From Lytechinus pictus (Eukaryota): DNA of 64,000 nt. Positions 2,993-51,292 of this stretch are shown piece after piece (the first letter of the stretch is position 1; the number at the start of each line of letters is the position of its first letter). The notes beneath the pieces are model-generated. The model was not told the origin of the DNA, ran no database searches, and saw only the letters and a program-made list of their open reading frames with translations. The stretch is from positions 3,226,001-3,290,000 of the forward strand of contig NC_087252.1 of assembly GCF_037042905.1 (NCBI RefSeq), in the 5' to 3' direction. The translations under genes and the position numbers were made by a program.

Positions 2993-2994
2993 TA

Positions 2995-22555: not shown

Positions 22556-22897
22556 TTATAAATATGTGGTGATCACCGAATCAGGACTTTCTAACGCAAT
22601 TCCTTGCTGGGGAAGAAATGTTGTAGGACCTGAACAGGATATGTATCCCCCGTCACAGGAATTAAGAATGATATCTAAAGTTGAACCCCCTTGCCATGCT
22701 TGCAGTGATGAATCACATGCTGGTTGTGTTGGATTCAGAGAAGAAAAGTTACCAGGTGGACTGGTTTGATGATTGGATGGAATTGTTGGGAGAGATATTG
22801 GCTTCATCTCCATGTATACGTGAGCATCCTGGATGGGTTGCTTAGGAACTACATCACTTCGGGAAACAGCGGGATCTCCACAAACACCAGGATTGGA
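22556..22897 (-). CDS. IgSF receptor, last coding exon (cytoplasmic tail with YMEM, ends ITTYL*)
   Basis: Acceptor ttttccttaactgtag, phase 0, 342 bp open to TAA: SNPGVCGDPAVSRSDVVPKQPIQDAHVYMEMKP...ITTYL*. Confidence 0.75.
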   Translation of the reverse strand, partial: SNPGVCGDPAVSRSDVVPKQPIQDAHVYMEMKPISLPTIPSNHQTSPPGNFSSLNPTQPACDSSLQAWQGGSTLDIILNSCDGGYISCSGPTTFLPQQGIALESPDSVITTYL

Positions 22898-23507
22898 CTA
22901 CAGTTAAGGAAAATGTATGAAACTGTATAAGATTGAAACATTTACTGAGTAACACCTTTAATAGTTGACTTCGAATTCAAAATATAAAAATATTCTTATA
23001 CCACAACCACTATGCTCTTGCGAATAATAATCCTAATAAAAAAATCAAATTGCTCACATGGCTGTAGAAAATATAGATAGACATCTAATGGCCCACTTAG
23101 CTCAAGTGAGTTTCGATTTACACCAATTTAATCGTTGTAGATGCACAATGTACATGATGTATATACAATGTCATTAGGTGATACGATTTTGAACGTATCT
23201 ATATAATCTATATTCCGTTGTATTAAACTAATGGCGTAGAAAAGTGAGCACATATATTACAATTGTGTTTTTTTTTCTTCAACAATGTCACACGGAATGG
23301 CATAGCCATTTTCATTTACTATTCTACAATCTGCATATAATTAAATGTGACGAACCCTACAAGATTATACGATTTGGTATCGGTGATATTCTAGACTGGA
23401 TTCTATTCAAACATACATTCTGTTTTATCTCGGTGAAGAAATAATAGCTTGATCGTTATGATTTCATCAACAATATTGCACGGGGTGGTATTACCAATTC
23501 TATTTAC

Positions 23508-23587
23508 CATGGTAAAATCAGCATGAGCGGGTTCTTGGTTCGAGTCCTTCAGGTGTATGGTGGTCATTGAAACCCCGTCTGCATTCC
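23508..23587 (-). CDS. IgSF receptor coding exon 7 (juxtamembrane tail)
   Basis: Acceptor ttctttatattgcag, donor ATG|gtaaat; 80 bp, phase 1 to 0, GNADGVSMTTIHLKDSNQEPAHADFTM; joins the last exon in frame. Confidence 0.7.
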
Positions 23588-24532
23588 CTGCAATATAAAG
23601 AACAATTTGAAAGTAATATAAGGAATTATTCGTGAGAGTCGTTAATAGACAGTCATGATAACTCATATTTAAGATAAACAGATTGTGTATGTTCAAAGTT
23701 AACTCCGTGTATATATATTTTTTTTTCAAATAAATGAGTAATCAAAATGAGCGGATGATTGGAAAGGGGAATACTGCATATACAATTATGACATCATGGT
23801 AAATATCTAACACGAAGCGCATCGTGAAATATGAAAATGTAGACCACAGATACGCAGAAAATCTCAAACAAAAAAGAAAATCAATGGTGGGCTTGGGCAT
23901 CATGGCAGTTAAAATGAATCGTTTCATTGGAAGTATACAACGGTAATTACTAAACAATTACTTATTTCAAATTGAGTCATCTGGCACATATTAATAAATA
24001 CATATAAATAATATAAAATATATTCTGTTCCCTGCAATATAAAGAACGAACTAAATTTTGTTCCCTTCTAATCTATCTTTGCATTTTGCGTTAAAGTGCA
24101 CTGATGTGCTTGTTGAACTTGTTATTTTTATCAACATTGGATATGAGTCAAATCGGCTGGGGAAATTCGCCCTGAACAAAAATTTGTTGTAAAAATTATA
24201 GTAGGACAAATATTTGATGGCTTAAGATTAAAGGTAAACAAAGGTATAAGAATACTAGATTTTGGATTTGTGACGTCATGAACGAGCAGCAGCTCCATAT
24301 GTTGTCAAATATGAAATGCATAAGTTTTATTTTATGAATCACGATGATTTATTTTTTGTCCTTAGTATAGCTTCAAATGTGTAACGTTTAACCAAAGCCT
24401 AATAGGTCCGCACTCAACAAGATCCGAATGGAAAGCTGGTAAACTTTTGATTTGACAAAAATGTGTTTCAACTATTTTTTGTCAAATGTAACACTGATAT
24501 TCAGCAAGCATCTTAACAAGAAAACGACTTAC

Positions 24533-24631
24533 CAATTCTCTTTCTATAACCGATGATACCGCAAACGCTTGTAATGAGAAATACGAAGCTCAAACATCCA
24601 ACAACAATAACAGTGTGCACTGGCTTCCAAT
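24533..24631 (-). CDS. IgSF receptor coding exon 6 (transmembrane)
   Basis: 99 bp, phase 1-1, donor gtaagt; DWKPVHTVIVVGCLSFVFLITSVCGIIGYRKRI is a hydrophobic helix followed by basic stop-transfer residues. Confidence 0.85.
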
Positions 24632-24872
24632 CTTCAAGTTAATATGAACAAGAAAACAACACCTTAATAAGTCTAGTGGAAAGATAACTTGTATCAAAAT
24701 TTATCAATAAACATATTTTTGCTTTCTTTGAATTGAATCTGATTCGAGGAATTAAAGAGAAGGATTATATCAATAAAATGTTTATTTTACGATCGCGATT
24801 CGTTAACACTGATGTTTTCATAACATATTCTTGTGACGATTCCTACATCCCATCGTTTGGTAGTCACTTTAA

Positions 24873-25466
24873 AGGACAAGTCCACCCCAACAAACCTCAA
24901 AAACCTCAAAAACGGAGAAAAATCTAACAAGCAAAACAATGAAAATTTCATCAAAATCGGATGTAAATTACGAAAGTTATGACATTTTAAAGTTTCGCTT
25001 AATTTCACAAAACAATATACGCACATCCTGGTCGGTATGCAAAGAGGCAGACTGATGACGTCACACACTCACTAGTTATTTTGTATTTTATTATATGAAA
25101 TATGAAATATTCTACTTTTCTCCTCCTTGTCAAATGAAACAAAGTTTAATTTCTCCCTGAACATGTGGAATTACCATTATTTTAAAAGTTTATGGTTAAG
25201 TTAAGTTGGTCCTTATTGTCAAATCTGTAAAAATTGAAATATTGTATTATTCAAACAAAAGAAATAGTGAGTGATGGACGTCGCAGACTCTCTCATTTGA
25301 AAATCGCTGAATTGTGCATTTAACTGTTTTGTGAAAAATAAGCGATACTTAAACATTTCATAACTTTCTTTTTTTACATCCACTTTCGATGAAATTTGGA
25401 GCTTTATGTTTGTTTGATTTTTCTCTATTGATTCAAATCAACAATTTTCCTGGGTGGACCTGACCT
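24873..25466. mobile_element. Kolobok-like non-autonomous element
   Basis: TTAA TSD, TIR AGGACAAGTCCACCC / GGGTGGACCTGACCT. Confidence 0.85.
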
Positions 25467-26039
25467 TTAATAATTACAAAACTACTATACGCTTTACATG
25501 GACATCACCACCCTTCCCTCACATCATACAATCATGCCAGGGTCCCGTCTTAAAAGAAATTACGATTACTCTATGGAAATCCTTCTTCAGGAAATTTGCA
25601 CAATGTCCTCTGTAAACAAAAAGAAGCACGGTGATTTTTCAAGAAAACCATGAATACATGAATATACATCATACTTAGAAAATATGTTGAACACAAATGC
25701 ATAATAGATGATGGCGTTGCTGGCCGTCCATAGTTGTGATTGATCGCATCATCGCAACTTTTAGTAAGACGGGGCCGATGTTTCACAGGTACATGTATAT
25801 ACCGAGTAAAGAAGAGCCGAAAGAGAGCTCATCTCTCTCCCCTGCCAGAGGCTTTTCATGAATCTACAAGATGGTTATGGTATTAATAATGACGTTCAAC
25901 TATGATACAGATAATCTATAGATTCTTCTCACAATCATAAAAATGTGAGTTTTAAAAATGAAAAACCTAACATTCAGCATTACATGTTTATTATCTACAA
26001 TTACTTGCTAAATTGAAAATTGATGAATAGAAAATTTAC

Positions 26040-26120
26040 CTTCCGACTGTCCACATTTAGCAGTGCTTGAATGACTATACAGAAGTCTCGTTACAGGACT
26101 GTTTCCGACAGCTGTGGATT
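26040..26120 (-). CDS. IgSF receptor coding exon 5 (stalk repeat 2)
   Basis: 81 bp, phase 1-1, tttag acceptor and gtaaat donor; ESTAVGNSPVTRLLYSHSSTAKCGQSE. Confidence 0.7.
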
Positions 26121-26285
26121 CTAAATAGATAACATAAAACTCGTGTTAAAATGAAAATACACTTAACACCACACGAAAATGAAATGTGTAGATGAGATGA
26201 ACAAAATGATTGTATTAATGGTTATTGTGATTTGGATATTATATCAACCAGAAAATTCCACGTTGGTATCAATATTCATATTCAT

Positions 26286-26466
26286 CATAGTGGAGGTGCC
26301 GTGGCCTAGTAGTCTATACATTGAAAGTCCGGAGTTCGATCCCCGGCCGCGGTACCTATGCCCGTGAGCAAGGAATTTAATCTACAATGCTCTTTTATCC
26401 TGCTTTCAAATGAAAATGCTATGTGCATTACTGGTAAGTAGGTGTGCAATTGTCAAAAAAGAAAAG
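26286..26466 (+). mobile_element. tRNA-derived SINE (internally deleted)
   Basis: A box TGGCCTAGTAG, B box AGTTCGATCC, A-rich tail, 15-bp TSD AATATTCATATTCAT at 26271-26285 and 26467-26481. Confidence 0.75.
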
Positions 26467-26737
26467 AATATTCATATTCATGAGGATGATGATCTAAGAT
26501 TATATATCAATAATGATGAACATAATTATGATTTTACTGACGATGATTTTTTATATTAATAATGACGTCAGATTATGATAGATATAATTTCTAATTTCTT
26601 ATAATGATCATGAACATTTGAGTTCTTAAAATTTGCAAAACCTAACTAAAAAAGAATATTGTAGGTTAATATTTTAACAATTAAATGCTAAATAAAAAAA
26701 TCATATTCAAGAATATTAACCTTTCGACTGTCCTTAC

Positions 26738-26797
26738 CTGTGTTTGAATGACTATAGTACAGGCTCGTCATAGGACTGTTTCCGACAGTTTTGGGTT
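26738..26797 (-). CDS. IgSF receptor coding exon 4 (stalk repeat 1)
   Basis: 60 bp, phase 1-1, tttag acceptor and CAG|gtaagg donor; EPKTVGNSPMTSLYYSHSNT; paralog of 26040-26120. Confidence 0.65.
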
Positions 26798-27395
26798 CTA
26801 AATTACGTATTAAAAAACACGCGTTGACATGAAAATACATTCAACATCAGACGAAAATGTAATATGTAAATGAAATGTACAAGTCATGTACAAATTGAAA
26901 ACATGATGATAATAATAAAAACATAAATTATAAATGTGTTAAACGGTAATTTCCACTATGACGATTGTGAAGTGGAAACATGAATGAATAAATGCATGGT
27001 TATATATGCACTATTGCGCATTCGTAGATATTTACTGAATAAAAATCCGTAACAGTTTTCTCTTTTGCTCTTTGTAATTTTGAATCATAAACTACAATAT
27101 TTCGTTCATATTAAGTTTCAACTGTATCAAATTCTACACGAATCGAAGTAAATATTAAAAAGGGGGGTTAAATTTGAAACTATATAAGAATGACCCCAGT
27201 CCGTGTTTCGTCCTCCACAAAATATCTTTGTTTGATTGGATATACATGTAATGCAAAACAAATATATTTCTCACTTCCATCTGCATTATACAATGCACAA
27301 AAATGATATAGCAATATTTTAGGGTTATTTATTAGGGAATAATTTTAATTTCTTATAATAATTGTGTGAAGAAAAAAATATGTACACGAACTCAC

Positions 27396-27767
27396 CATGC
27401 GCACCCTCCTTTTTTATTATCACGGATGCATTGATTTGGCTGGAATTTTTGACGATACAAACGAGCTCTATTTCACCATCATCGTCATCCATATAAGTTG
27501 GTGAGAAGTCTATAGTTAGTGTTGGCAAAGCAAGTCTATTATCATTTGAGTCATTAAGAAGCTTTGGAGGTCGAACGATGTACCATAACATGATCATGCC
27601 CTTTGGAATCTCCCATTCCAGGTCCACAGGAAGTTTCACTGACGTATTGGTCTTACAGACTAACGTCTTGTTTCCCCCTTCTGCAACAACAATTGATCCT
27701 CCTTTCGGAATTAATTTATCATCCAGGTCGTATACATCTTCAACCAACATCAACCCTTTCGCTGGAA
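27396..27767 (-). CDS. IgSF receptor coding exon 3 (C2-like Ig domain)
   Basis: 372 bp, phase 1-1, tttactag acceptor and gtgagt donor; EGGNKTLVC...PVDLEW...LTIDF...DDGEIELVCIVKN shows the B-Cys, C-Trp, F-Cys pattern. Confidence 0.85.
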
Positions 27768-27959
27768 CTAGTAAATAACATTCGGAAGTAAGGACAATAC
27801 ATTATGTTTGTATAAAAAAAAATAATTTGATATCAATTATGTTTATATAATTAACAATCATATATTTGGGAAAGATCCAAATATACTCCAGACATTAAGC
27901 AGGTGAATTATTTTATTGAAATGCGTTTGGAATAGTGGCCTCAACTTCAAAGACATTTT

Positions 27960-28800
27960 TTGTTGAAATTTGAAGTATATGGTGTCTACTTTAAGAATCT
28001 GATGGGTGCCACCTGGCCACCCTTCTTTGTCAATAGTTTAACGTCATAGACTACGCCCACTTGTTCACGTACCTCTCAAATATGACTTTCATGTTTTACA
28101 GGATAAGCAAGTCATGTTTGGTATCAAATTAAAACAAATGAAAATCAAATGCAAATATAGGTCAGCTAAAGTTCATTTAAGGTCATATGTCATATTGCAT
28201 TAGAATGTAAGTAATACATATAGATGTCAAGCAAGTTATATGCATTATTTTTGCTAATAATCAAGTTGAGGGTGAGAATATTACGAATCCGATGAATGGT
28301 ACCTTGGCATCATGAGGAATTTCATTTTTTTCTGACGTTATAAACCACACCAACTTTCTTACATTCCTCCTAATTATGCATTTTCCATTGAGAGGGATAG
28401 ACACATCATGTTTAGTATAAAATTAAAGCAAATGCAAAATTCAGGGTCCGTGTCCAGGGTAATTAAAGTTCACTTAAGGTCATAAAAGGTCAAACTGGAT
28501 CTCAAAATGTAAGTAACTAATGCGGAATATATCAAAACAATTTCGATACAATAATATGCTCTTTATTGCTGCAAGAAAAATTTGATGGTGTGTATATCAA
28601 GAATCTATCGGGTACCACCTGCTCACCCTTTGGCACTAATGTCTGTTCTCAAACGTCATAAACCACGCCCACTTTTCAAATAGGCCTATACGTAATTATG
28701 ACAGAATGTGACATTTTAGAGAATATACCTATCGTGTTTGGTGTCTAATTAAAGCTTGTGGCAAGAGAAATGTAAAACTCAAGGTTAAAAGAGAAATTGA
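27960..28800. repeat. Three degenerate about 300-bp tandem units; related inverted fragments near 45340-45900
   Basis: Recurring gtcataaaccacgcccac...catgtttggtatcaaattaaagc...aaagttcatttaaggtcat. Confidence 0.55.
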
Positions 28801-30074
28801 ATACATGTCAAGTTTACCTAAAGTACATTTATTCTAATGATTGGTCAAATGCTGTCAATGAACTTTGCAAGACGTTAATTAAAACATGTATTATCATTAT
28901 GCTTGGTATCATATCACACAATTTTCTTAAATAAAAATACACAGTGTTTTTGTTTTATAAGTTTCAATAAAAACATATTAACTATAATCAAGGTCAGAGT
29001 CATGCACGGTAAAAAATGTATTACACACAAGTTCTGGTTTAAGATCGATCGTGTTAGAACTACATGTACCTAGGAATGTTACTTCTGAAACACAAGTTCA
29101 CATTTTAGAAAATTATCAAATTACATAAATTAAAAATTTTACACCATCCTGACACCGCTACATTTTTTCCGGTTCCTCTTCTGGAGACTCGTCTGATTCC
29201 ACCCGCCCCTCTCTCTTCAGTCTCACAGTGCTGCATGTTCAATTTCATTGTACTCTATTTATAATGACACAATGCTATTTACTATATACACCAAAGTAGC
29301 AAATGCTCGCTGTGGAACATGGTATCCCTGATTTGCATCCACATGGAACAAGTTCTAATAAATCCTTATTGGTAACCACTGTGCTATGAACAGATACAGT
29401 AATGCCCTTTTATTTTTTACGTCTCATTCATATATGGAAGGTATAATGTTGCAGGGGAGTCATTCAGATTAGTTGCTCTCCAGATAAAGCTCCTGAAGAA
29501 TATTGTAGCATAATGAGTTGTACCTTAAAGTTATATGTCATAATTTGATCGTAGAGGGTGATATTTTCATGATGTGATATTTGCGTTTATTGGAGAAGTA
29601 CGTCAGTTCGCTGGGAGCTGCGATGGCGTGCGGTTGTAAGATGTAAGCTCCGAATAAATCAAAATGAACTATATACTGAATATTTCCTAGGTTGCTTCAT
29701 TTGCATACTTTAGGGTGAGTGAGCGGGAGATTTGGTGTATTTCAGAGGAGTGAGAGAGTGTATCACGTTGCACAATAGACTTTTGTGAGCGAATCCGCCC
29801 CAAAGTGGATTTACAAGTGAGGAGAAGCGTGGACCGGGTTCTGGAGACTGCGAGACGGCAGAACGCTACCCCAACAGGGCCCGGTTCCGCCACACTGGTG
29901 GCAGCGGTGGGATATTACAACGTGGTACTGGAACACAACTAACTGTTGGCGCGCCTATGGATTTTCACCTATTGTAGAGCGCCTATACACATTAATGAAT
30001 AGCGCCTGGAAAGAGGCAAGAAGCGAGCGCCTACGTCGATGAAGGCGCCTGGAAAGAGGAAAGAAGAGAGCGCA

Positions 30075-30625
30075 TTGAGTGTGTGAGGCGGAGATAGCGC
30101 CTATACACGTTGGTGAATAGCGCCTGGAGAGAGGGCAGAGGAGAGCACCTACGGAGAGCGCCTGCGCCTGGAGAGAGGCAAGAAGAGAGCGCCTACGCCT
30201 AGAAAGGGTGCCTGGAGAGAGGAAAGAGAGCGCTTTGGGTGTATGTTGCGGAGATAGCGCCTCCACACGTTGGTGAATAACGCCTTGAGTGTGTGTGGCG
30301 GAGATAGTGCCTACACACGTTGATGAACAGCGCCTTGGGTGTGTGTGGCGAAGATAGCGTCTACACACGTTGGTGAATAGCGCATTGGGTGTGTGTGGCG
30401 GAGATAGCGCTATTCACCTACACACGTTGGTGAATAGCGCCTTAAGTGTGTATGCCGGATATAGCGCCGTCACACGTTGGTGAATGGCGCCTTGAGTGTG
30501 CGTGGCGGAGGTAGCGCCTGTACACGTTGGAGAATAGCGCCTTGAGTTTGTGTGGCGGAGATAGCGCCTATACACGTTGGTGAATAGCGCCTTGAGTGTG
30601 TGTGGCGGAGAAAGCGCCTATACAC
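30075..30625 (+). repeat. 50-bp minisatellite inside the LTR element
   Basis: Unit GAGATAGCGCCTACACACGTTGGTGAATAGCGCCTTGAGTGTGTGTGGCG at 30251, 30301, 30351, 30401 and onward. Confidence 0.9.
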
Positions 30626-31495
30626 GTGTACACGACAGCGTAGATAGCTCCTATACATGTAAATGTATAGCGCCTAGGAATTGCGCATGTGAGGGGCGCC
30701 TATGATGTTAGAGCGCCTACGGGGAGCGCCTGGAAACGGAGGAGCGACTTTTCCCTGCATATACGCTAGTGTATGTTGACTATGATGTTGACGTTTAATC
30801 TGGAGCTCGCCAACATGAGGCGGGACAGCAAAAATAGCTTAGAATTAATTGCAACTTACTAGAGTGTCGTCTGTGTACATAAGAAATAGTGTTCGAGTGT
30901 CGTCTGTGTACATAAGAAATAGTGTTGTATAAATGGCTGAACGAGTGGCTATGAAGAATCTGAAATCTGGATCTGAAATTCTGTGCAGGATAAGTCCGGG
31001 ATAAGTGCAGCGTGGAGATGGGGATCTCTGAACGTCGAAGAGAAGTACTTGTTGGATATGCAGATACTAGCAACGAGGGAACTGAATCTTTCCTATGATG
31101 GGAAGAAGCAAGTCATATTCCTGCTAGTGGGGTACTGCATTCAGGAAGCAGAGAAGAACTACTATCGGGCTCAAAATGAGTCATGGGCCATGGTAGTATT
31201 TCGGAGCTGCAACAGAACTTCTATGGGCGGAGATCAGGACGGATCATCGGGCACTTGGTTTGATCTTTGCAGAGGCAAGGGTGGTGCCGTGGAACTTGAC
31301 ATCAGCAATGAGCAGTTACCAACAGAAAGAACCTTCGATCAGGTAGATCTTGAAAGCAGAGCATCAGTCAGTCGACCGGTCCGATTGGTCAACGGTGGCT
31401 TCACAGTCTAGTGTGGAGAAGTCCTATTGGAGGATGCACAGCTAGAGATGAAGCAAGAGACACTCTACAAGAAGTAAGAGTGTGACCAAGGTCGG

Positions 31496-32015
31496 AATCA
31501 ACACAGGGAGCTCCCGCCCGCGCAGCGGGCGGGAGCCCAGGAGCTTACCGTGTATTTGACCATAGTCACCGGACTAGGGTGATTTATGGTCTAAATATTT
31601 CTCCAAATCAATTGTGAAACATAAAGTATACAATTACCACGATTATATGGATGAAGGTCTAACGAGTGGCAGTTTCCTGACATCTGGGCACAGACTGGAA
31701 CCTCAAAAAGCGAAAAGTTATCTCCTCTACCCCAGTCTCGATCGGCCATTTTGTTACAATTTTTAACAAAAATGGCCGATCGAGACGGGGGTAGAAGGAG
31801 AGAACTTTTCGTGTTTTTTTTTTTGAGGTTCCAGTCTGTGCCCAGATGTCAGGAAACTGCCACTCGTTAGACCTTCATCCATATAATCGTGGTAATTGTA
31901 TACTTTCTGTCTTCACAATTCATTTGGAGAAATATTTAGACCATAAATCACCCTAGTCCGGTGACTATGGACAAATACACGGTAAGCTCTTGCGCGGGCG
32001 GGAGCTCCCTGGATT
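31496..32015. mobile_element. About 520-bp almost fully palindromic MITE
   Basis: Arms CAGGGAGCTCCCGCCCGCGC... pair with few mismatches around a centre near 31758; flanking direct repeat AGGTCGG(AAT). Confidence 0.85.
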
Positions 32016-33163: not shown

Positions 33164-36100
33164 TAGACGGGTCAATATACGACCAAAAATAGCCTTACCC
33201 GGAACAAATTGCAACAAATGATTTTTCAACGGTATTTTGTACTATTTGACCTCAGGAATAACATACTAAAAATCTACCAAAATCCGAACCCGGGAAAGTG
33301 GTTATTTTCAAGATGGCGTCCAAGATGGCCGCCATTCACTGAAAATTGATACAACTGACACATTATCCACTCTAGAATCCTATTTCGGTTCATATTCCAT
33401 GTTCTGGGGTTACAAAAACTGATTTAGGCTAGAATGAATTATAAGCCCTCCAGTGTACCAGGCAAATCCAAGATGGCGCCCAAAATGGCTGCCATATAGG
33501 CTGAAAATCAACAATTCATCTAAATTTGTTTTTATTCAATGGTTTTAAGGGTAAAATATTACGTCGAAACAAGTTATAAGGACAGCCAGTGGTCTGGTGT
33601 GTCCAAAAATCCAAGATGGCTTCCAAAAATGGAGTTTAAAATGGCTGTTGATAATTAAAATGGACATAGTTCATTTCATATCCGCCTGGGACATAATGAT
33701 TTGGTGCGAAGACCATGATTTCAATGGTCAAATAAGACATTGGGACAAGTTACAAACACAGTCAGTGGTCTAGTATGTAAAAAAATCCAAGATGGCCTCC
33801 AAGAATGGAATCGAAAATTGCTGTTGCAACTTCAAAAAATCCGTCATAGTTTGCTCAATGTCCAGAAATATGATTTTTGTGTCTTATACCATGGTTAAAT
33901 GGGTCGAATAATACATTGGGACAAGTTACAAGGAAAGTCAGTGGTCTGGTATGTGCAAAAATCCTCGATGGATTCTAGAAATTGATTCTGAAATGGCTGC
34001 TAATACTTAAAGCGGACGTAGCTCATTTCATTTTGGCCTGGGATATGTGATTTTGATGTCTAAACCACTGGTTTCAAGGGTCAAATAATATCTTAAGATA
34101 AGTTAAAAGGACAGTCAATGGTCTGGTTTGTCCAAAAATCGAATATGGCGTCCAAAAATTGGTCTTAAAAATATGCTGCTGATACTTAAAGTGGACAAAG
34201 CTCATTTTATATCGGCCTGGAAATGTGATTTTGGTGTCTAAACCACTAGTTTCAAGGATCAATTTATACATTAGGGCAAGTTACAAGGACAGTCAGTTGC
34301 CTGGTCGGTCAAAAAATCTAAGTTGGCTTCCAAAAATTGAATCTAAATTGACTGCTGCTACTTAAAGCGGACATAGCTTATTTTATATTGGCATGAGAGA
34401 TGCGATTTTGGTGTCTAAACCGCTGGTTTAAGGGCCAAAATAATACATTAGGACATGTTTTAAGGCCAGTCAGTGGTCTGGTATGACCAAAAATCCAATA
34501 TGGCTTCCAAAACTTGATTCATAAATGGCTGTTGATACTTAAAATTGGCATAGCTCATCTTAAATCCTCCTGTGAGATATGATTTCGGTGTCTAAACTAT
34601 GGTTTCAAGGGTCAAATTATATATTAGGACAAGACAATGGCAGTCAGTGGTCTAGTATGTCCAAAATTACAAGATGGCTTCCAAAAATGGAGTAAGAAAT
34701 GTCTGATGTTACTTATAAAAGGACATAGTTTGTTTAATATCTGTATGGGGAATATGAGTTTGGTGTTTAAAGCATGGTTTAAAAGGGTCAAGTAATACAC
34801 TAGGGTAAGTTACAAGACCAGTCAGTTGTCTGTATGTTAAAAAATCGAAGATTACTTCAAAAAATGGGGTGTAGATTGACTGTTGCTACCTAAAAGTATG
34901 CATAGTTTATTATAAATACACCTTGGAGGTATGATTTTACTGTCTATACTAGAGTTTACAGGGTCAAGCAATACATTGGGTTAAGTTGAACAGACAGTCA
35001 GGTGTCAGGTATGTCCAAAAATCAAAGATGGCTTTAAAAATGGGGGTCTTAAATGACTGCTGTTACGTAAAAGTGGATGTAGAACATTATAAATACACCT
35101 TGGGGATATTATTTTGGTGTCTACACTAGGCTTTCAAGGGTCAAACAATACTTTGGGACTGGTTACCAAGATATGCAGCTATCCATTTTGCCTTAAAATC
35201 AAAGTTGGCTTAAAAATGGGTTCTAAAGCATGTAAAGTGACTACTGCTCCATAAAATATCTACCTGTTAGGAATAATCTTGGTGTCTACACTTAAATGCA
35301 TGGGGACAAGTTATCATATTGCTTCATGAGTTAGTAACAGCACCCATTTTGATGAAATTTTAGAATCTATCATGGATTCTTTGACAAAATGGAGTACTAA
35401 CCATCCTGTTACTTGTCCGAGTGTATTATTTGACCCTTCATACCACAATTTGGACACCAACATTATTTCTTGCAGATGAATGTTGTAGAACTCTGACCAC
35501 TATTGAATGATATGAGTCGTTTTAGATTCCTTTTTTAAAAACCCTCTTGTGTTTTAGGCAAATTGGACAACTGCATATCAATGTAACCAGTCCAAACGTA
35601 TTATTTTAACCATGAAACCATAGTGTGGACACCGAAATCATATCTCCTAGGTGGATTTTAAATGAACTATGTCCATTTTTTAAGTAACAACAGTCATTTT
35701 AGACTCCGATTTTTGGAAGCTTTCTTAGATTTTCGACATACTGGACCACTGACTGTCCTTGTAACTAATTTTCTGCCTTTTGAAACCATGATATAGGCAA
35801 CAAAATCATATGCCCTTGACGAATAAAACATGAATTATGTCCATTTTTAAATACCATCGCGGCTGATTGATACTATTTTTTTAGCCACCGTAGACTTTTG
35901 GACATACTTGACCACCAATCGTCCTTGTAAAAGATCCCAATTTATTATTTGACCCATTTAACCATGGTATAGGCAAAAAAATCATATTCCAGGATATTGA
36001 ACAAACTATGTTGGGTTTTTTTTTTAGTAGCAACAGCATTTTTACTCCATTTTTGGAAGCCATCTTGGATTTTTGAACATACCGGACCACTGACTGTTCT

Positions 36101-36701: not shown

Positions 36702-36734
36702 TAGTTACATAGGCCTTGCAGGCTTAGATCTGTA

Positions 36735-38872: not shown

Positions 38873-39139
38873 CACTAGTGTACCAAAGGGGGGGGGGGCA
38901 GACTGCCCCTCTGACGAGTCACAACTGATTCAGCGGACGTGCCCCCCCCCCCTTTGAGATGCCAAATTAATAATTTGTAATGTAAAATGCAATGAAAAGA
39001 CGTATGTCCCCTCTTTTGAACGTGAAGATCTTTTTTTTTTTTTTTTTTTTTGGGGGGGGGGGCTTGTCACATTTTTTCGCGGACGAAATTTCCTCCAGAA
39101 AATTTGCCCCCCTTTTGGAAAATCCTAAGTACGCCAGTG
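38873..39139. mobile_element. hAT-like MITE
   Basis: Ends CACTAGTGTAC / GTACGCCAGTG; 8-bp TSD CATGGAAC, whose right copy is split by the next insertion. Confidence 0.75.
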
Positions 39140-39142
39140 CAT

Positions 39143-43364: not shown

Positions 43365-46300
43365 CGGCAGATGGCTACCCCGACAAGGCCCGGTTCCGCC
43401 ACAATATCATCTTTGACATGCTATGTCATTTGCAGGTCTTGCTAAATTGTGAAGTATATTACATCTTCTTTTGCATCATGCTCGATAGATTAGGATTTTT
43501 TTTCGAGCAGAAAGTTTAGAGTGGAAGTTTGTCCCTTTCTGATTGGACACTATGGTATCACATCCTTATTGTCTGTACACAGCCAGCATTTTTCTCCCAG
43601 CTTTAATTTCAAACCTTTAATGTGAGTTACTTTTCCATAAAACTTGTAAACCCAAAAGGAGAGCAGTAGAAAAACAAAAATGACAGTGTCGTCAGAGAAA
43701 AAAGTAATATACATGCATGCTTCTACCATGTCTACTAAGTTCAGAAGATATCTGATAGTACTCGGAACAGGACATTGCCCGTATTTGCTCATGACACAGT
43801 GGTTGCTCCTAATTAATTACAAGAACTTGCTTGTCCATGCAATTCAGTGTCACCATTTTATCTATGGCTTAATGCAGTTGCTGCCCAGCCGTCAAATCAT
43901 ATCATAATTAATACTTAAAATGTTAAGCGAAGTAACACAGCTATGAGAGATATGTTATGGGAGATTTACGAGGAAGGTTGGTTGCAAAGGAATGGGACAG
44001 ATGGTAGTATAGAGAGGAACATGGTGTAAAATGTAGGTTTCGCCTTTGTAATTCCGAAGGTTCGTGATTCCGAATCACGTATATTGCCTATAGATTCGTT
44101 AATCCGAAAAAGAAAAAGGGCTCGTTAATCCGAATATTTGTGGCGTTATTGCGAAGGTTCGTTAATCCAAAAACAATATAGGAATAAGTATTCCGAGGGT
44201 TCGTTATTCCAAAAACGAAATAAGGCTCGTTATTCCGAAAATGAAATAAGGTTTGTTAATCCGAAGGTTCATAAGTCAGAAAGCGAAAAAAGGCTCGTTA
44301 TTCCGAAGGTTCGTTAGTCCGAAAATGAAATAAGGTTCGTAATTCCGAAGATTCGTTGTTCCGAAAATGAAATAAGGTTTGTTAATCCGAAGGTTCATTA
44401 GTCAGAAAGCGAAATAAGGCTCGTTATTCCGAAGGTTCGTTAATCCGAAAATGAAATAAGGTTCGTAATTCCGAAGGTTCGTTGTTCCGAAAAATGAAAC
44501 AATCTGTGGTTATGTGGGTGGGAGGGCAGGGGTGCGACGGAACGCATTTCCCTTGGGGGAGCTAAAAGGGGAATTATTATGTCAAAATGATCTCTTTGGA
44601 GATATTTCACCATGAGATTATCATCTGTGTGATATCGTTGTGTGTTTTGTTGTAATCAAGTTGAGCAAAGCCTTTTTGAAGGGATTTTTGATCATTATTG
44701 TATATTTTTGGGACATTTCAATAAAAATGAAAATAAGACATTCCGAGCAGTTTTCGTAATCATAAAAACTTTTATGATATTCCAAACTGAAAAAAATGGA
44801 CTATCTTAGCATTGTTATAAACAGAAAAAAGGTGAGTACCTTAATTACCGCCCTTTCACACGAAAAAAAAATTATTTGAATGATGATTCCAGTGAAAAAT
44901 ACGGCTTGTGACGAATATTTAGCACGTGTGAAACCAAACTAGAACATGATTAGAATCATGAACGCAATCACAGTCACGATAAGAATAGCAATCATCATTA
45001 CAATAATGATTCAAGATTCTCGAGTGAAAATGCCCTAATGCGAACGCGAAGCGCGAGCAAAAAAAATAAAAAAGAGTATTAATATTGAAAACTGAACATT
45101 AATTTTCCAAATAAGCATTTGTTTTTTGAAAAAGTGCATTTTTCCTACGGGGATTTTTATTTCTTCAGTAGAAGATATTAAAATGACACATCCTCCCCTA
45201 TAAATCCCTTATCTGGAGGTTATTTCGTTTTCGGATTAACGAACCTTCGGAATATTCCAATCTTCGGAACAACGAATGTAACCCAAAATGTTTCATTTGT
45301 ATAGATTATTTTGAATCACATGCATTGCTTGATACCCCAAAATATATGTTACACTTTTTGTTTATTTGACCTTTAATGAGCGTAAATTACTACAAGGTGA
45401 TCTCTATATGTGTTTTCCCCTACCTTTTAAATGTGCATTCCATTTTCAATAAGCTTGAATTTTATACCAAACATGACATGTTTATCCAGTACACTAAATA
45501 AACCTTAATTAAGAGATTGGCCTATGTGAAAGGGGGGGGGGGTGGATTATGACGTCAGGAAATGACATTGATGACATTGCCTAATGATGACAAAGTAGCC
45601 CCTGTCAGAATATACACATCCTCAACATAACTCTCAGCGAAATATACTAATGCCCAACTTATTTGTGTTCCAAACATGATATATTCTGCATTGTATGTTG
45701 CATTATTTACATTTGTGACCCATTTTGACACTGTATGACCTTGAATGCACTGGAAACGTTTTAAATGCCTTGTGATTATAATTTCCGCATTTGATTTTGG
45801 ATTTGCTTTAATATCAAACATGATATGTTTATTCCACTCAGTAGAAAAGTAATACTCTAGAGAAATATAGGAAAGGTGTTACCAAAGCAAATTATGATCA
45901 AATTTGTTGCATTTTGGAATTGTTAGGTATCACAATTAATTGCAGACACAGAAGCAAATGCTCATATTATTTTATCGGCAGATGGCTACCCCGACAAGGC
46001 CCGGTTCCGCCACAATATCATCTTTGACATGCTATGTCATTTGCAGGTCTTGCTAAATTGTGAAGTATATTACATCTTCTTTTGCATCATGCTCGATAGA
46101 TTAGGATTTTTTTTCGAGCAGAAAGTTTAGAGTGGAAGTTTGTCCCTTTCTGATTGGACACTATATTGTCTGTACACAGCCAGCATTTTTCTCCCAGCTT
46201 TAATTTCAAACCTTTAATGTGAGTTACTTTTCCATAAAACTTGTAAACCCAAAAGGAGAGCAGTAGAAAAACAAAAATGACAGTGTCGTCAGAGAAAAAA

Positions 46301-48572
46301 GTAATATACATGCATGCTTCTACCATGTCTACTAAGTTCAGAAGATATCTGATAGTACTCGGAACAGGACATTGCCCGTATTTGCTCATGACACAGTGGT
46401 TGCTCCTAATTAATTACAAGAACTTGCTTGTCCATGCAATTCAGTGTCACCATTTTATCTATGGCTTAATGCAGTTGCTGCCCAGCCGTCAAATCATATC
46501 ATAATTAATACTTAAAATGTTAAGCGAAGTAACACAGCTATGAGAGATATGTTATGGGAGATTTACGAGGAAGGTTGGTTGCAAAGGAATGGGACAGATG
46601 GTAGTATAGAGAGGAACATGGTGTAAAATGTAGGTTTCGCCTTTGTAATTCCGAAGGTTCGTGATTCCGAATCACGTATATTGCCTATAGATTCGTTAAT
46701 CCGAAAAAGAAAAAGGGCTCGTTAATCCGAATATTTGTGGCGTTATTGCGAAGGTTCGTTAATCCAAAAACAATATAGGAATAAGTATTCCGAGGGTTCG
46801 TTATTCCAAAAACGAAATAAGGCTCGTTATTCCGAAAATGAAATAAGGTTTGTTAATCCGAAGGTTCATAAGTCAGAAAGCGAAAAAAGGCTCGTTATTC
46901 CGAAGGTTCGTTAGTCCGAAAATGAAATAAGGTTCGTAATTCCGAAGATTCGTTGTTCCGAAAATGAAATAAGGTTTGTTAATCCGAAGGTTCATTAGTC
47001 AGAAAGCGAAATAAGGCTCGTTATTCCGAAGGTTCGTTAATCCGAAAATGAAATAAGGTTCGTAATTCCGAAGGTTCGTTGTTCCGAAAAATGAAACAAT
47101 CTGTGGTTATGTGGGTGGGAGGGCAGGGGTGCGACGGAACGCATTTCCCTTGGGGGAGCTAAAAGGGGAATTATTATGTCAAAATGATCTCTTTGGAGAT
47201 ATTTCACCATGAGATTATCATCTGTGTGATATCGTTGTGTGTTTTGTTGTAATCAAGTTGAGCAAAGCCTTTTTGAAGGGATTTTTGATCATTATTGTAT
47301 ATTTTTGGGACATTTCAATAAAAATGAAAATAAGACATTCCGAGCAGTTTTCGTAATCATAAAAACTTTTATGATATTCCAAACTGAAAAAAATGGACTA
47401 TCTTAGCATTGTTATAAACAGAAAAAAGGTGAGTACCTTAATTACCGCCCTTTCACACGAAAAAAAAATTATTTGAATGATGATTCCAGTGAAAAATACG
47501 GCTTGTGACGAATATTTAGCACGTGTGAAACCAAACTAGAACATGATTAGAATCATGAACGCAATCACAGTCACGATAAGAATAGCAATCATCATTACAA
47601 TAATGATTCAAGATTCTCGAGTGAAAATGCCCTAATGCGAACGCGAAGCGCGAGCAAAAAAAATAAAAAAGAGTATTAATATTGAAAACTGAACATTAAT
47701 TTTCCAAATAAGCATTTGTTTTTTGAAAAAGTGCATTTTTCCTACGGGGATTTTTATTTCTTCAGTAGAAGATATTAAAATGACACATCCTCCCCTATAA
47801 ATCCCTTATCTGGAGGTTATTTCGTTTTCGGATTAACGAACCTTCGGAATATTCCAATCTTCGGAACAACGAATGTAACCCAAAATGTTTCATTTGTATA
47901 GATTATTTTGAATCACATGCATTGCTTGATACCCCAAAATATATGTTACACTTTTTGTTTATTTGACCTTTAATGAGCGTAAATTACTACAAGGTGATCT
48001 CTATATGTGTTTTCCCCTACCTTTTAAATGTGCATTCCATTTTCAATAAGCTTGAATTTTATACCAAACATGACATGTTTATCCAGTACACTAAATAAAC
48101 CTTAATTAAGAGATTGGCCTATGTGAAAGGGGGGGGGGGTGGATTATGACGTCAGGAAATGACATTGATGACATTGCCTAATGATGACAAAGTAGCCCCT
48201 GTCAGAATATACACATCCTCAACATAACTCTCAGCGAAATATACTAATGCCCAACTTATTTGTGTTCCAAACATGATATATTCTGCATTGTATGTTGCAT
48301 TATTTACATTTGTGACCCATTTTGACACTGTATGACCTTGAATGCACTGGAAACGTTTTAAATGCCTTGTGATTATAATTTCCGCATTTGATTTTGGATT
48401 TGCTTTAATATCAAACATGATATGTTTATTCCACTCAGTAGAAAAGTAATACTCTAGAGAAATATAGGAAAGGTGTTACCAAAGCAAATTATGATCAAAT
48501 TTGTTGCATTTTGGAATTGTTAGGTATCACAATTAATTGCAGACACAGAAGCAAATGCTCATATTCTTTTAT
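43365..48572 (+). repeat. Near-identical 2.6-kb tandem duplication (43365-45975 and 45976-48572)
   Basis: Identical ORFs offset by 2597 bp; copy 1 has 14 extra bp near 43554-43567. Confidence 0.95.
44035..45284. mobile_element. TIR element with 42-bp subterminal repeats (short-array copy; duplicated at 46632-47881)
   Basis: 7-bp TSD AAAATGT; the left end is the reverse complement of 63160-63307. Confidence 0.75.
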
Positions 48573-48882
48573 CAAATTATGGTTCAATATAAATTTTCCA
48601 AATTGGATGAAACGTAAAGGGAATTATACATAAAATTAAAAGTGTGGTGTGTTCCTCGGTAAAAAAATAGTTGTTTTGTCATGCTTCTCACTTTCCGCCC
48701 TTTCAGACAGTACAAAATCGTAATTTTAATGATGATTCCAGTGCAAAAATAAGGTTAATAACGCGTTTTCAGCAAACTAAAAAATGATGAGAATCACGAA
48801 CGCTAATCACAACCACGAATTCAAATTATACTCCGGAAGTGAATTCTAGTTAAGTTTCACACAAATTACGGTAAGAATTTTG

Positions 48883-49184
48883 ATAATAATAATAATAACA
48901 AAATAGAGTATTTCTAAAGCGCCAAATCCACATTGATTATGTGCTTAAAGGCGCTGAAATATACTTGGTATATTATTATCACCCCGGCTGTAGCTGAGCG
49001 GCCATATAGGCGCTAAAGCATTCAAGGAATAAATCCTACCGGGTACCCATTCACCACACCTGGGTCGATTGCAGCACAATGTGGATAAATTTCTTGCCGA
49101 AGGAAATTACGCCATGGCTGTGGTTCGAACCCACAACCCTCTGTTTCAAAGTCCAAAGACTAATCCACTGGGCCACAACGCTCC
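48883..49184 (-). mobile_element. tRNA-derived SINE (SINE2 type)
   Basis: Head GGAGCGTTGTGGCCCAGTGGATTAG...GGGTTCGAACC, central TGAATGGGTACCCGG, (ATT)n tail. Confidence 0.9.
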
Positions 49185-49314
49185 ACATTTTGCGTGTAAA
49201 AGGCTTGAACTCCCAAAACATTATACTCTGACCGTCATTAGTTGTGCTACCTTACATTTCCCCAAAGCACCAAATGTTATCACCTATAAGTTTCATTACA
49301 GTAGAGTCTTTTAC

Positions 49315-49400
49315 CATTTACAGTCAAGATGGTTCTACATTCCACGATATCTTAATGATAAATCACACGGAGATATTCGCATTCATCCGTAAACGAAACA
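49315..49400 (-). pseudogene. Pseudo-exon fragment paralogous to the 3' half of the first Ig exon
   Basis: VSFTDECEYLRVIYH*DIVECRTILTVN with G|gtaaaa donor, versus VSLADESEYDLVVRYPDYTEECITILTVN. Confidence 0.75.
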
Positions 49401-49543
49401 TTGAATTATAATTTGATGAAAAACTATGAGCATTTTGCTTCTGTGTCTTACTACTCTGACCGCAATTAATTGTGATGCCTAACAATTCCAAAAAGCAACG
49501 AATTTTATCATAATTTGCTTGATTGCAACAGAGAGTGTTTTAC

Positions 49544-49828
49544 CATTAACAGTCAAGATGGTTATACATTCCTCAGTGTAGTCAGGATAACGCACAACAA
49601 GATCATATTCTGATTCATCCGCCAACGAAACATCCCATATTGTTAGATAAGAACCGATTACCGAAGCATCTCCGTCACATGGGGTGCATTTTTCGATGTA
49701 ATTGAATAAAATTTTCGAGTCGTAATTCCGCTTCAATGTTATATGCACTCCATAGGTTAGGTTGATTTGCATACACCGTAGATTGACGTCATCTCCAGCA
49801 GTTACGGATTTGTATTCACGTTTTACAT
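49544..49828 (-). CDS. IgSF receptor coding exon 2 (atypical V-like Ig domain)
   Basis: 285 bp, phase 1-1, ttttttattcaag acceptor and gtaaaa donor; GDDVNLRC...SYLTIWDVSLADESEY...ILTVN; joins the next exon as LTVN-VPAK. Confidence 0.85.
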
Positions 49829-51243
49829 CTTGAATAAAAAAAATAATCAATTTCTTCCTATTATTAGTAAATTGCATAAAACTCCAAGTATATAGTGATC
49901 ACTATCATTAGTTACCCGTACGGAGTACATGGAGTATGTAGCCGCATGATATATACTTCATATACATTCCTATAGTACAACTAATCATATAGGATCGAAT
50001 AATAATACACTGTAAAAATAAAGGCTTATTTCAGATAGAAATGCATATATTACATTTAAATGTACTCAACACATATTGTTTAAATTTTGGAGGTTTAGAT
50101 AAATAACAAGATGAGTACATTTTAATAATATTTTATAGGTATCCACTGCTCATGATTATTTTTATTCGTTAATGAATACAATATTTGCCAATATAAATAA
50201 TAATATGTGTCTGTTATGGTGGCAAGCATTCCTGTGTATTTATTTTTTTTTATAACGGTTGAATTGACATCTAATTAAAATCAATCAAAATTAACATTAT
50301 TTATCAAAACGTATATTTATCAACAGATCAAGACTCTCCTAAACCATATGGGCCTTGATAAGAGATTGGCTATGTGGTTGACCCAAATATGATTGATTCA
50401 GTTGAATACTTTTTGAAAATCAATTCTTTATTCATTCAAATTCAAAGAGGTAAAAAACATATGCACAATGCAAACAATTATTAGAAGTGCCAAAAATACT
50501 GCAAGATAACATCATGTCATGAATATGCTATACATTGCCTTGATTACATATTATCATTGAATGAAAAAAAACTTATAAAAGCAAAGAGGTCTTGTGAAAA
50601 ATATGTTCTGTAAAAGAAATTAAGATACGTATTATATGGTAACTTTATCTCTTGCCTCCCAAATGCCTGTGAAAACATATTGACAACTCTCTCGGACTGG
50701 CATGTCAAGTCGCTTATATTTATATTTCATGCGTTCATGACAATTAATAGGCTAAAATATGCGTACAAATATACATCGCTAGAGTGAGCCTACAAATAAA
50801 CTGTAGAAGCAGTACAAATAGCTTTTTCTCTGAAAAGGTTTATTCTGTATTGAAGGGGGGGGGGGTGATGGATCGATTTTTTTAGGGGGTAGGGCAAATT
50901 GGACATTTCGAGTCTATTGGGGTGATATCGGGGCACTTTTTCTTAACTTTGGAGGGATAAAGGATCACACACTCCTTTTACTATCTCCGGCACAGTTTCA
51001 TGTGTGAAAACTAGTGTAAATTATCTTATATCTTGAAAAGTAAGAATTGTGAAAAAGAAGAAGAAATTGTGCAGATTGCTAAAAAGAAAATTAGCCCTTC
51101 TTCCTACAATGATATAGTTGAATTATTTAAGAACTGTCACATTTTACTGTTTGCGATAATTATACATTTACTCATGCGAGAGAGAGAGAAAAAAAATGTC
51201 ATGCAAAATCTATGCACCATAACAACTACAATGACCTACTTAC

Positions 51244-51292
51244 CAACAGAGCAAGTTACGAATCCGATTATGAAAATATACAATTTCCACAT
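51244..51292 (-). CDS. IgSF receptor first coding exon (signal peptide)
   Basis: atcATG TGG AAA TTG... gives MWKLYIFIIGFVTCSV, then G|gtaagt (phase 1). An upstream acceptor at 51339 suggests a further 5' UTR exon. Confidence 0.75.

Follow-up and report, generated by a model that had tools for sequence, protein, structure and literature searches.

Sea urchin immunity as known rests on expansions of the TLR, NLR, SRCR and Transformer families; the literature searched describes no echinoderm family of Ig receptors in which tyrosine-motif tails of opposite kinds occur. The C2 domain of CD2/SLAM receptors has four conserved cysteines, and the ITSM motif has the pattern TxYxxI/V. As far as PMC10657885 describes them, typical SLAM members carry the ITSM and three atypical members do not. 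In the account given in PMC11599192, YxxM leads to PI3K and YxN to Grb2. Paired receptors with converted ligand domains are among those treated in PMC5112662, and PMC8699970 reports an Ig-NACHT receptor that binds bacteria in sea cucumber.

The locus characterized here resembles several described systems in part. The window (the whole 64,000-nucleotide stretch of Lytechinus pictus DNA analysed) contains a predicted immunoglobulin superfamily (IgSF) gene that belongs to a tandem cluster. With the vertebrate paired Ig receptors (CEACAM1/CEACAM3, Siglec-11/16, SIRP, PILR), the cluster shares (i) its tandem arrangement, (ii) a variable N-terminal V domain, and (iii) in the genes g4 and LOC135154845, a near-identical ligand domain, conversion-like exchange and different tyrosine tails. 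It differs in that the presumed activating tail carries YxxM, YxN and a PDZ-type end, without an ITAM or charged TM adaptor; in that activating-type copies outnumber inhibitory ones 9 to 1; and in that the homogenised part is the tail, not the ectodomain. We read the likeness as a functional analogy rather than demonstrated homology. The Hydractinia Alr family, as characterized in PMC9546547, is similarly a clustered invertebrate IgSF group with unusual V domains and a mixture of activating-type and ITIM tails; urchins, however, are not colonial, and the cluster is known here from one assembly.

The initial annotation had called the window gene CD2/SLAM-like. The likeness extends to the V + C2 ectodomain, TM, tyrosine tail, single-domain phase-1 exons and a V domain without the F-strand cysteine, but a relationship did not hold up and membership was rejected: the ITSM occurs in none of four tails, the C2 domain has only two cysteines, and the V domain has conserved B- and G-strand cysteines. 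No SLAM or CD2 entry is found among the PDB sequence matches, 50 fold matches or Atlas neighbours listed, the nearest structures being SYG-2 D2, CADM, ALCAM and CD96. With CD28, ICOS and CD28X, in the description of PMC11599192, the gene shares the single-pass IgSF layout, a YxxM PI3K site (YMEM versus YMNM or YEDM) and an optional YxN. It differs in its two Ig domains, long stalk, 144-aa tail, multigene array and lack of orthology; CD28 membership was rejected on the two Ig domains and an FG loop without the proline motif, despite the YxxM. The family is undescribed in the literature searched (the Ig gene lists of Rast 2006 and Hibino 2006 may mention S. purpuratus relatives), and its gene and protein ids appear in no paper found, nor in the text supplements of PMC11688612 (two files) and PMC11574130 (three files).

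Structure of the window gene

Eight minus-strand exons assemble into 1,368 nt, encoding 455 aa plus a stop, with no internal stops. All seven introns are GT-AG, with phases 1,1,1,1,1,1,0. The features of the locus are as follows.

51244..51292, minus strand: exon 1 (49 nt), signal peptide, 16 codons + 1 nt; outside the RefSeq model
49544..49828, minus strand: exon 2 (285 nt), V-like Ig domain; outside the RefSeq model
49298..49401, minus strand: partial copy of the exon 2 3' end (78% nt); g1 equivalent at C8:3066282-3066188
27396..27767, minus strand: exon 3 (372 nt), C2-like Ig domain (CD80/nephrin-type), cysteines C149 and C215
26738..26797, minus strand: exon 4 (60 nt), Ser/Thr-rich stalk, duplicate of exon 5 (~80% nt); in the RefSeq model
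26040..26120, minus strand: exon 5 (81 nt), stalk
24533..24631, minus strand: exon 6 (99 nt), transmembrane helix and basic stop-transfer residues; type A TM, common to g1 and LOC135154845
23508..23587, minus strand: exon 7 (80 nt), juxtamembrane tail
22556..22897, minus strand: exon 8 (342 nt), distal tail and stop, homogenised among paralogs
22805..22816, minus strand: YMEM (YxxM), candidate PI3K p85 site; in 9/9 cluster tail exons and the L. variegatus protein
22634..22651, minus strand: GGYISC, second tyrosine, residues 425-430; copies vary (GGYLSC, GGYKSC, lost in g9)
22559..22567, minus strand: terminal T-Y-L, candidate class I PDZ ligand; SVITTYL ends 8/9 tail exons

The assembly bears out the 8-exon, 455-aa gene with GT-AG introns and compatible phases that had been proposed, RefSeq adding its own support for exons 3-8. 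The proposed type I membrane layout (V-like, C2-like, stalk, TM, tail) is likewise supported, with a tail of 144 aa; the TM helix (residues ~288-310) reaches a hydropathy of 2.6 and has no charged residue in its core. RefSeq protein XP_063959165.1 (LOC135154872, Lytechinus pictus) is identical to residues 118-455, so the exon 3-8 junctions agree. The description of the gene as hidden therefore applies to exons 1-2, which the RefSeq model omits, whereas exons 3-8 are already present there as an uncharacterized protein.

Exons 1-2 are probably joined to exons 3-8 across intron 2, which repeats have expanded to 22 kb. We infer this link because intron 2 contains no other V-like exon (a search of its 22 kb for a nearer V or leader exon found none), paralog g1 is collinear with the window gene, and the g1 and g4 chains are alike. 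In g1, the signal exon, intron, V exon, C2 and tail follow in the same order at 75-94% nucleotide identity, with a 90% nucleotide match between the leader exons; g1 and g4 are both open chains of the same layout, and hydrophobic leader-exon candidates lie upstream of all eight V exons in the cluster.

RNA-seq junctions, named by the initial annotation as a check, were not seen for exons 3-8 in the runs examined. Over window positions 21000-29500, depth on these exons was ~0 in all three raw RNA runs (one quarter of the reads per run; tissue unknown), and no spliced reads across them were seen in 4 of 24 listed runs, in which high read depth was confined to intronic repeats. None of their exon joints is among the 15 joints listed of 608.

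Tandem cluster, module exchange and selection

The main point of the analysis lies beyond what a sequence-only reader could see: a tandem cluster, swapped modules and an ITIM-like sister gene. The paralog search that the initial annotation had suggested uncovered ~10 tandem units in 345 kb (contig C8, 3.05-3.40 Mb), the window gene being one, with a total of 8 V, 9 C2 and 9 tail exons. RefSeq has models at four of the loci, one with five isoforms; at least three units are damaged or partial (g3 truncated, g7 frameshifted, g9 without ectodomain). The V domains share 24-90% identity, with dS mostly >1.2 or saturated between subgroups, and the tail exons 71-89%, with dS 0.04-0.31; judged by these comparisons, the last exon is homogenised among paralogs.

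Gene g4, an open 444-aa chain with a YxN/YMEM/TYL tail, is a mosaic of two other cluster genes. Its 5' 3.2 kb (signal and V exons) is 91-96% identical to LOC135154845 (V domain, 90% aa), while its TM and tail region is 90-93% identical to g2. A g4+g2 grouping is rejected by the V and C2 data (p-AU 8e-5 and 9e-9), whereas the tail tree joins the two (99/97). Sequence identity and tree topology together demonstrate that modules have recombined between cluster genes.

The tail of LOC135154845 is unrelated to that of g4 and lacks YxxM; its exons lie in order in the genome and are flanked by splice-type sequence. It contains two matches to the inhibitory ITIM consensus [I/L/V/S]xYxx[I/V/L], LDYDLL and SDYDLL, a weak signal (shuffle P 0.044) in which the motif copies are not independent since they lie in internally repeated exons; YxxL/V occurs at 5/8 tyrosines (P 0.005). 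A search with two of its exons returned no convincing second copy, only one weak match with four stops. Thus g4 and LOC135154845, like paired receptors, are clustered genes with a similar ligand domain and different tails, but in place of an ITAM (none in the four tails scanned) or a charged TM residue there is YxxM. Counted against a paired-type reading, classical paired families share ectodomains among many members, and here there is one such pair; the V domain of the window gene is 35% identical to that of LOC135154845, and an inhibitory twin with the window gene's V type is absent. Elsewhere on the contig, a distant gene at C8:38.1 Mb has V exons with stops or breaks; the tail profile does not match its tail, and its YMAMKP is like YMEMKP by eye only.

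In all four close pairs, dN/dS is higher for V (0.66, 0.73, 0.80, 2.0) than for C2 (0.45, 0.51, 0.57, 0.58; pooled Fisher p 0.047). Purifying selection acts on the C2 exons (pooled p 3e-5), and the tail as a whole is near neutral (mostly 0.5-1.3). Pooled V dN/dS does not exceed 1 (pN/pS ~0.8, p 0.15 versus neutrality) and the g4-g10 V excess is not significant, so positive selection is not demonstrated. The fast-evolving family initially proposed stands as a fast-changing, unnamed one; the suggested dN/dS check did not show positive selection on V.

These data also bear on the alternative that the cluster is a drifting, partly decaying array, in which the mosaic genes and the common tail are products of unequal crossing-over alone, the motifs persist by descent, and the window copy is perhaps silent or, as in RefSeq, without signal and V exons. 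We consider this improbable. The state of g3, g7 and g9, the broken V exons at C8:38.1 Mb, tail dN/dS of ~1, the lack of reads on exons 3-8 and the repeat expansion of intron 2 are what decay would leave, but it sits poorly with purifying selection on C2, with eight of eight V exons open and two invariant cysteines kept despite dS >1 between subgroups, with RefSeq models at four loci, and with a L. variegatus protein that keeps YENS, YMEM and TTYL.

Ectodomain and scaffold relatives

The window V domain has cysteines in strands B, C'/C'' and G; the F-strand cysteine is absent and the strand C Trp replaced. Across the cluster the F-strand cysteine is missing from all eight V exons, and the B and G cysteines are invariant in all 17 aligned rows, which suggests that these two form a replacement disulfide. 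Such a shift of the cysteine from strand F to G, with intermediates carrying both, would be a new way of stabilising a V domain. Of the V-frame signature as listed in PMC9546547 (Gly16, Cys23, Trp41, Arg75, Leu89, Asp98, Tyr102, Cys104), the window copy by eye has five residues (Gly, Cys23, Leu, Asp, Tyr) and lacks Trp41, Arg75 and Cys104. Its Pfam V-set E-value is 0.16 (11/17 rows match, best 9e-8), and neither window domain, V or C2, passes the Pfam cut-off. The AlphaFold model of the V exon is unusable (pLDDT 47), and a Foldseek search with it returned no match at E <= 0.001. The Atlas model of the L. variegatus relative's V domain resembles a V-set (TM 0.87 to a CD96 cluster), and PDB profile matches to the V domain are IgLONs, DIP/Dpr and NCAM.

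The C2 exons have the hallmarks of an Ig fold (B and F cysteines in 9/9 rows, C-strand Trp in 8/9), which may be of the C2, I or C1 subtype. The fold list for the window C2 model (pLDDT 64.5) is filled by Ig domains, the best match being SYG-2 residues 125-232 (D2; Z 8.3, rmsd 3.5, 101 aligned); Atlas neighbours of the ectodomain include CADM and ALCAM among those listed, and over 301 columns V + C2 can be aligned with a nephrin-like protein of Diadema (25%, E 5e-9). Echinoid nephrin-like/SYG-2/CADM/CD96-type V + C2-set proteins are the probable source of the two-domain scaffold. In them too, the V domain has paired C'/C'' cysteines and precedes a C2-set domain that begins P-P/A-x-G; the window family differs in having one V and one C2 rather than many Ig and Fn3 domains, B + G cysteines in place of the canonical B-F pair, and unrelated tails. 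Nephrin/SYG-2/kirrel proteins contain at least five Ig domains, and nephrin has Fn3 as well; membership was rejected on the two Ig exons of the window gene and its distant (25%) nephrin-like similarity. That the closest named scaffold, nephrin-like, is of the adhesion class was counted against the paired-type reading.

The same relatives raise the possibility, unlikely in our estimation, of a lineage-specific adhesion or cell-identity family shortened from a nephrin/SYG-2/kirrel-like ancestor, whose V domains would bind their own kind or sisters from cell to cell as the animal develops or its nerves are wired; signalling at junctions would run through PI3K and PDZ, and there would be no defence role. 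The Diadema alignment, SYG-2 D2, the Atlas and PDB matches and the PDZ-type tail, typical of junctional adhesion molecules, fit this account. Set against it are the silence of exons 3-8 in the three RNA runs examined; the birth-and-death, chimeric genes and ITIM-like sister, unusual among developmental adhesion genes; and the absence of a conserved one-to-one ortholog. Named relatives occur in only two Lytechinus species among the matches listed, and searches by shared words, by length window or over the best 150 of 269 rows found no named member outside Lytechinus, S. purpuratus included; in the searches made, no known adhesion molecule is a one-to-one ortholog.

Tail motifs and putative function

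A C-terminal S/T-x-L is the rule for class I PDZ ligands. The YxxM and terminal TYL to which the initial annotation drew attention are conserved among cluster copies (the g7 tail is frameshifted before SVITTYL) and in the L. variegatus protein, and the Lytechinus pictus genome encodes a p85-type gene (p85 iSH2). The single YxxM of the window tail has a shuffle P of 0.08, and YMEM invariance alone a P of ~0.07 against a 51% background; the C-terminal codons of cluster tails show almost no variation, silent sites included, so the constancy of YMEM could be due to conversion and not to selection. In exon 7, the window gene has H-A-D where g2, g4, g7, g8 and the L. variegatus protein carry a YxN motif. 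Without the Grb2-type YxN of its type B sisters, the window copy would signal via PI3K only.

We hold with moderate confidence that the product of the window gene is a single-pass receptor at the cell surface, and that its tandem IgSF family in Lytechinus has a build resembling that of paired recognition receptors; its function is presumably immune or allorecognition. The distal V domain, kept away from the membrane by the C2 domain and a glycosylated stalk, would bind a variable ligand, either on microbes or in the form of a self molecule that is polymorphic. Upon receptor clustering, a tyrosine kinase would phosphorylate YMEM, recruiting class IA PI3K through p85, while TYL would anchor the receptor to a PDZ scaffold. 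LOC135154845 may be a damping counterpart acting through SH2 phosphatases, with g4 as its activating twin, and unequal crossing-over or gene conversion could place different V domains on the same tail.

A bolder version, which we advance only tentatively, is that Lytechinus independently built a paired Ig self/non-self system. Divergent V domains, each stabilised by a non-canonical B-G disulfide, would be moved by germline recombination onto a standard tail that activates PI3K, and the V domain of the single ITIM sister would also be found on an activating twin. Splicing might even let LOC135154845 change its sign: an intact orphan TM-YMEM cassette (g9) lies 19 kb downstream, and joining the ectodomain to it would yield an activating isoform beside the inhibitory one from a single gene. 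According to PMC2832619, genes that evolve fast are usually immune or reproductive ones, and a reproductive recognition family (sperm-egg or gonad) would likewise be fast-evolving and genus-restricted. We nevertheless think this very unlikely, since a V domain shared by tyrosine-motif tails of opposite kinds would fit a signalling balance better than gamete binding.

If the paired-type reading is true, the balance of activating and inhibitory Ig receptors extends to a non-chordate deuterostome. The g4/LOC135154845 pair, with its near-identical V domain on two tails, provides a direct test, in a species for which PMC11361634 reports stable transgenesis. A further echinoderm parallel is the sea cucumber AjNLRC4 (Ig-TM-NACHT), also a membrane receptor with an Ig ectodomain, but the urchin cluster contains no NACHT match, the nearest of 73 genome matches lying ~1 Mb away. 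Among ten Atlas ectodomain matches, an echinoderm Ig-TM-NACHT (NLRC4-like) cluster has the highest TM by query (0.76), a value from structure comparison alone and under the Atlas naming bar.

Exons and product of the window gene

The initial annotation had proposed an eight-exon receptor gene. Assembled from the sequence, the eight exons have the claimed sizes and total 1,368 nt, with GT-AG introns (phases 1,1,1,1,1,1,0), a 455-aa product and no internal stops; the motifs YMEM, GGYISC and terminal TYL also lie where that annotation had placed them. The exons, in window positions, are:

51292-51244, minus strand: exon 1 (leader)
49828-49544, minus strand: exon 2 (V-like Ig domain, V)
27767-27396, minus strand: exon 3 (C2-like Ig domain, C2)
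26797-26738, minus strand: exon 4
26120-26040, minus strand: exon 5
24631-24533, minus strand: exon 6 (TM)
23587-23508, minus strand: exon 7
22897-22556, minus strand: exon 8 (last exon)

A protein search returned an existing RefSeq model for this gene (LOC135154872; XP_063959165.1, 338 aa), identical to residues 118-455 of the product. RefSeq therefore supports the exon 3-8 junctions, and omits exons 1-2. From the sequence, exons 1-2 are predicted to be joined to exons 3-8 across the 22-kb intron 2. Repetitive sequence and a 2.6-kb tandem duplication take up much of this intron, in which the family's V-exon profile detects no second V exon. From the leader exon through the tail, the related unit g1 and the window gene are collinear, g1 having the shorter intron, and both contain a partial duplicate of the V exon; g1 and a further unit, g4, likewise form open chains with this arrangement.

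Of the 24 runs listed, four were mapped to window positions 21000-29500 (exons 3-8); three of these were raw RNA sets, of which one quarter each was used (tissue not stated). In these three quarter-runs, the bins of exons 3-8 have approximately zero depth, and the high RNA depth in the interval belongs to intronic repeats. None of the 15 joints listed, of 608 in this interval, falls at an exon boundary.

Several other features of the window were recorded. The 2.6-kb duplication (43365-48573; 99.4% identity) is either very recent or an assembly artefact, and a 20-nt exact copy of the exon 7 acceptor region, a possible decoy, lies at 24028-24047, 460 nt upstream of the real acceptor. A 42-bp satellite occupies 57649-63165 (main array, ~131 copies), 44144-44499, 46741-47096 and 56137-56362, and accounts for the long repetitive ORFs. 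A 177-bp tandem repeat (~9 copies) lies at 33540-35166, and related copies in inverted orientation occur close by. Remnants of retrotransposons, in fragments (Gypsy-like gag/pol and LINE-like reverse transcriptase, identified by eye from the ORF list), are present at 742-10317 and 52692-53543.

A tandem cluster of mosaic genes

The 404 kb around the window contain eight V, nine C2 and nine last exons, every one on the minus strand, with hydrophobic leader-exon candidates upstream of all eight V exons. Gene structure, clustering, mosaicism and motifs are observed features of a family of approximately ten units (g1-g10; contig NC_087252.1, or C8, 3.054-3.397 Mb), the window gene being g6 and the window C8:3226001-3290000. 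Complete open chains are formed by g1, g4 and g6; g2, g5 and g8 were checked as single exons only. Unit g3 is truncated, g7 has a frameshift in its last exon, g9 is an intact TM and tail cassette for which no ectodomain exon was found, and g10 maps to RefSeq LOC135154845.

Some details of individual units deserve mention. The g9 cassette (TM, exon 7, exon 8, with YMEM and TTYL; C8:3371190-3372761) lies 19 kb downstream of the stalk exon of LOC135154845, has a phase compatible with that exon, and is a possible alternative 3' end; its exon 7 acceptor appears moved by 3 nt, frame intact. RefSeq LOC135154843 omits the intact V exon of g1, and LOC135154845 isoforms X2, X3 and X5 carry a V shortened by 23 residues (strands F-G gone); each may reflect alternative splicing or model error.

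V domains of the cluster are 24-90% identical in pairwise comparison, with dS between subgroups mostly >1.2 or saturated. C2 exons fall into types A and B, with 38-47% identity from one type to the other; the TM exons also form two types, nearly unalignable to each other. The last exon, in contrast, is 71-89% identical, with dS of 0.04-0.31 (eight copies, without g9, and g7 only up to its frameshift). Old ectodomains are therefore carried on a young or homogenised tail.

Judged by sequence, g4 (C8:3150468-3161888) is a chimera of a g10-lineage 5' part and a g2-lineage 3' part. Identity to g10 is 91-96% over its 5' 3.2 kb (leader and V), and identity to g2 is 90-93% over the TM and tail region. 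The tail tree unites g4 and g2 (support 99/97), a grouping rejected by V (p-AU 8e-5) and C2 (p-AU 9e-9); each tree had eight rows, and the groups tested were picked after pairwise identities had been seen. This gene is open (444 aa), and no RefSeq protein for it surfaced in searches.

By a simple counting method, V has a higher dN/dS than C2 in four close pairs (pooled p 0.047), purifying selection acts on C2 (p 3e-5), and V shows no departure from neutrality in a test for positive selection (p 0.15). We regard a drifting or decaying tandem array as improbable.

A further family member lies at C8:38.1 Mb and has four V exons, partly broken. This distant locus (C8:38093197-38110465) carries the V exons in tandem, several of them broken; it also has a single C2 and a TM exon, and its tail contains several tyrosines, one of them in YMAM. 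Outside L. pictus, the one named relative found in the searches is a L. variegatus protein, LOC121419687, which keeps YENS, YMEM and TTYL. A V profile searched against 1.84 billion representatives gave 269 matches at E <= 0.001; among the best 150 of these, rescored by domain, five unnamed single-exon V sequences score 90-104 bits and three sequences 40-45 bits, with generic Ig domains below 35 bits.

Tail motifs and a proposed function

YMEM is present in all nine last exons of the cluster, and SVITTYL forms the C-terminal end of eight. Under the class I PDZ ligand rule, the terminal TYL is a candidate PDZ ligand. Against a background of 51% invariant columns, conservation of YMEM alone has P ~0.07, of TYL plus four upstream residues 0.009, and of both 6e-4. 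Silent sites around the two motifs hardly vary, so conversion may contribute to their conservation. Exon 7 carries a YxN motif in g2, g4, g7 and g8, and lacks it in g1, g3, g6 and g9; g5 reads YAD. In the CD28 family, YxxM serves as the PI3K site and YxN as the Grb2 site (PMC11599192). A p85 inter-SH2 domain is encoded in the L. pictus genome.

The tail of g10 (224 aa, six exons) is unrelated to the YMEM tails and contains no YxxM. It has two matches to the ITIM consensus, as defined in PMC9546547 (P 0.044, shuffling), and YxxL/V at five of its eight tyrosines (P 0.005, a value that internal repeats inflate); a search with two of its exons found no convincing second copy of this ITIM-like tail. 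The V domains of g4 and g10 are 90% identical and their leaders the same, with opposite-looking tails. Paired CEACAM receptors are described as having such a layout (PMC5112662). The window gene is a putative activating-type member; it has its V type in common with g1 alone (66%).

We give roughly even odds, the highest among the readings considered, to the product being a variable recognition receptor, in which (i) the V domain would bind a changing ligand, (ii) phosphorylated YMEM would recruit PI3K, (iii) TYL would anchor the receptor to a PDZ scaffold, and (iv) g10 would damp the response. In this scheme the ligand, the cell type, the phosphorylation and the partners are all putative. That the variable V domains belong instead to a reproductive recognition family seems very unlikely.

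A literature search (without two 2006 sea urchin immune-genome papers) found no published description of this receptor family, and sea urchins are absent from the available portion of a 2025 invertebrate IgSF review (PMC11999971). Mixed-tail clustered Ig receptors are already known from vertebrates and Hydractinia, and the L. pictus cluster is therefore a variant of a known arrangement; g4/g10 offers a clear-cut paired layout that can be tested in an experimentally tractable urchin.

Ig domains and the probable origin of the scaffold

The V profile matches IgLON, DIP/Dpr, NCAM and CADM chains. With such matches, an adhesion code specific to the lineage comes into view, which we consider rather unlikely beside a variable recognition receptor. 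In the V alignment the F-strand Cys is replaced, and a Cys is present in strand G. Every one of the 17 V rows carries the B and G cysteines; the F-strand Cys is absent from all eight cluster copies and present alongside the G Cys in four unnamed rows. A B-G disulfide is accordingly a prediction for this domain.

The structure model of the V exon is of low confidence (pLDDT 47). As modelled in the Atlas, the L. variegatus V is matched to CD96 clusters (TM 0.85-0.87); Atlas matches of the g10 ectodomain include CADM, ALCAM, tapasin and an echinoderm Ig-NACHT cluster (TM 0.65-0.76). The C2 model (pLDDT 64.5) matches Ig domains, with SYG-2 D2 at the top (Z 8.3) among many near ties. The initial annotation called the architecture CD2/SLAM-like; membership of that family does not hold: the tail has no ITSM, and the C2 has two cysteines only, unlike the SLAM family.

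V and C2 together align to a Diadema nephrin-like protein (E 5e-9), and a separate array at C8:11.7-12.3 Mb consists of V and C2 exons of nephrin-like type that have the canonical cysteines. The V and C2 scaffold probably derives from this nephrin-like class. The separate array is the larger, with a V and several C2-set exons per unit at ~10 kb spacing; the 160 kb read contain 16 V-like exons, with B-F cysteines and a C'/C'' pair. At opposite ends of the contig lie two nephrin-like genes that closely resemble each other (V, C2, C2 exons; C8:958106-961367 and 38448137-38451445), neither of them more than a few Mb from a locus of the receptor family.
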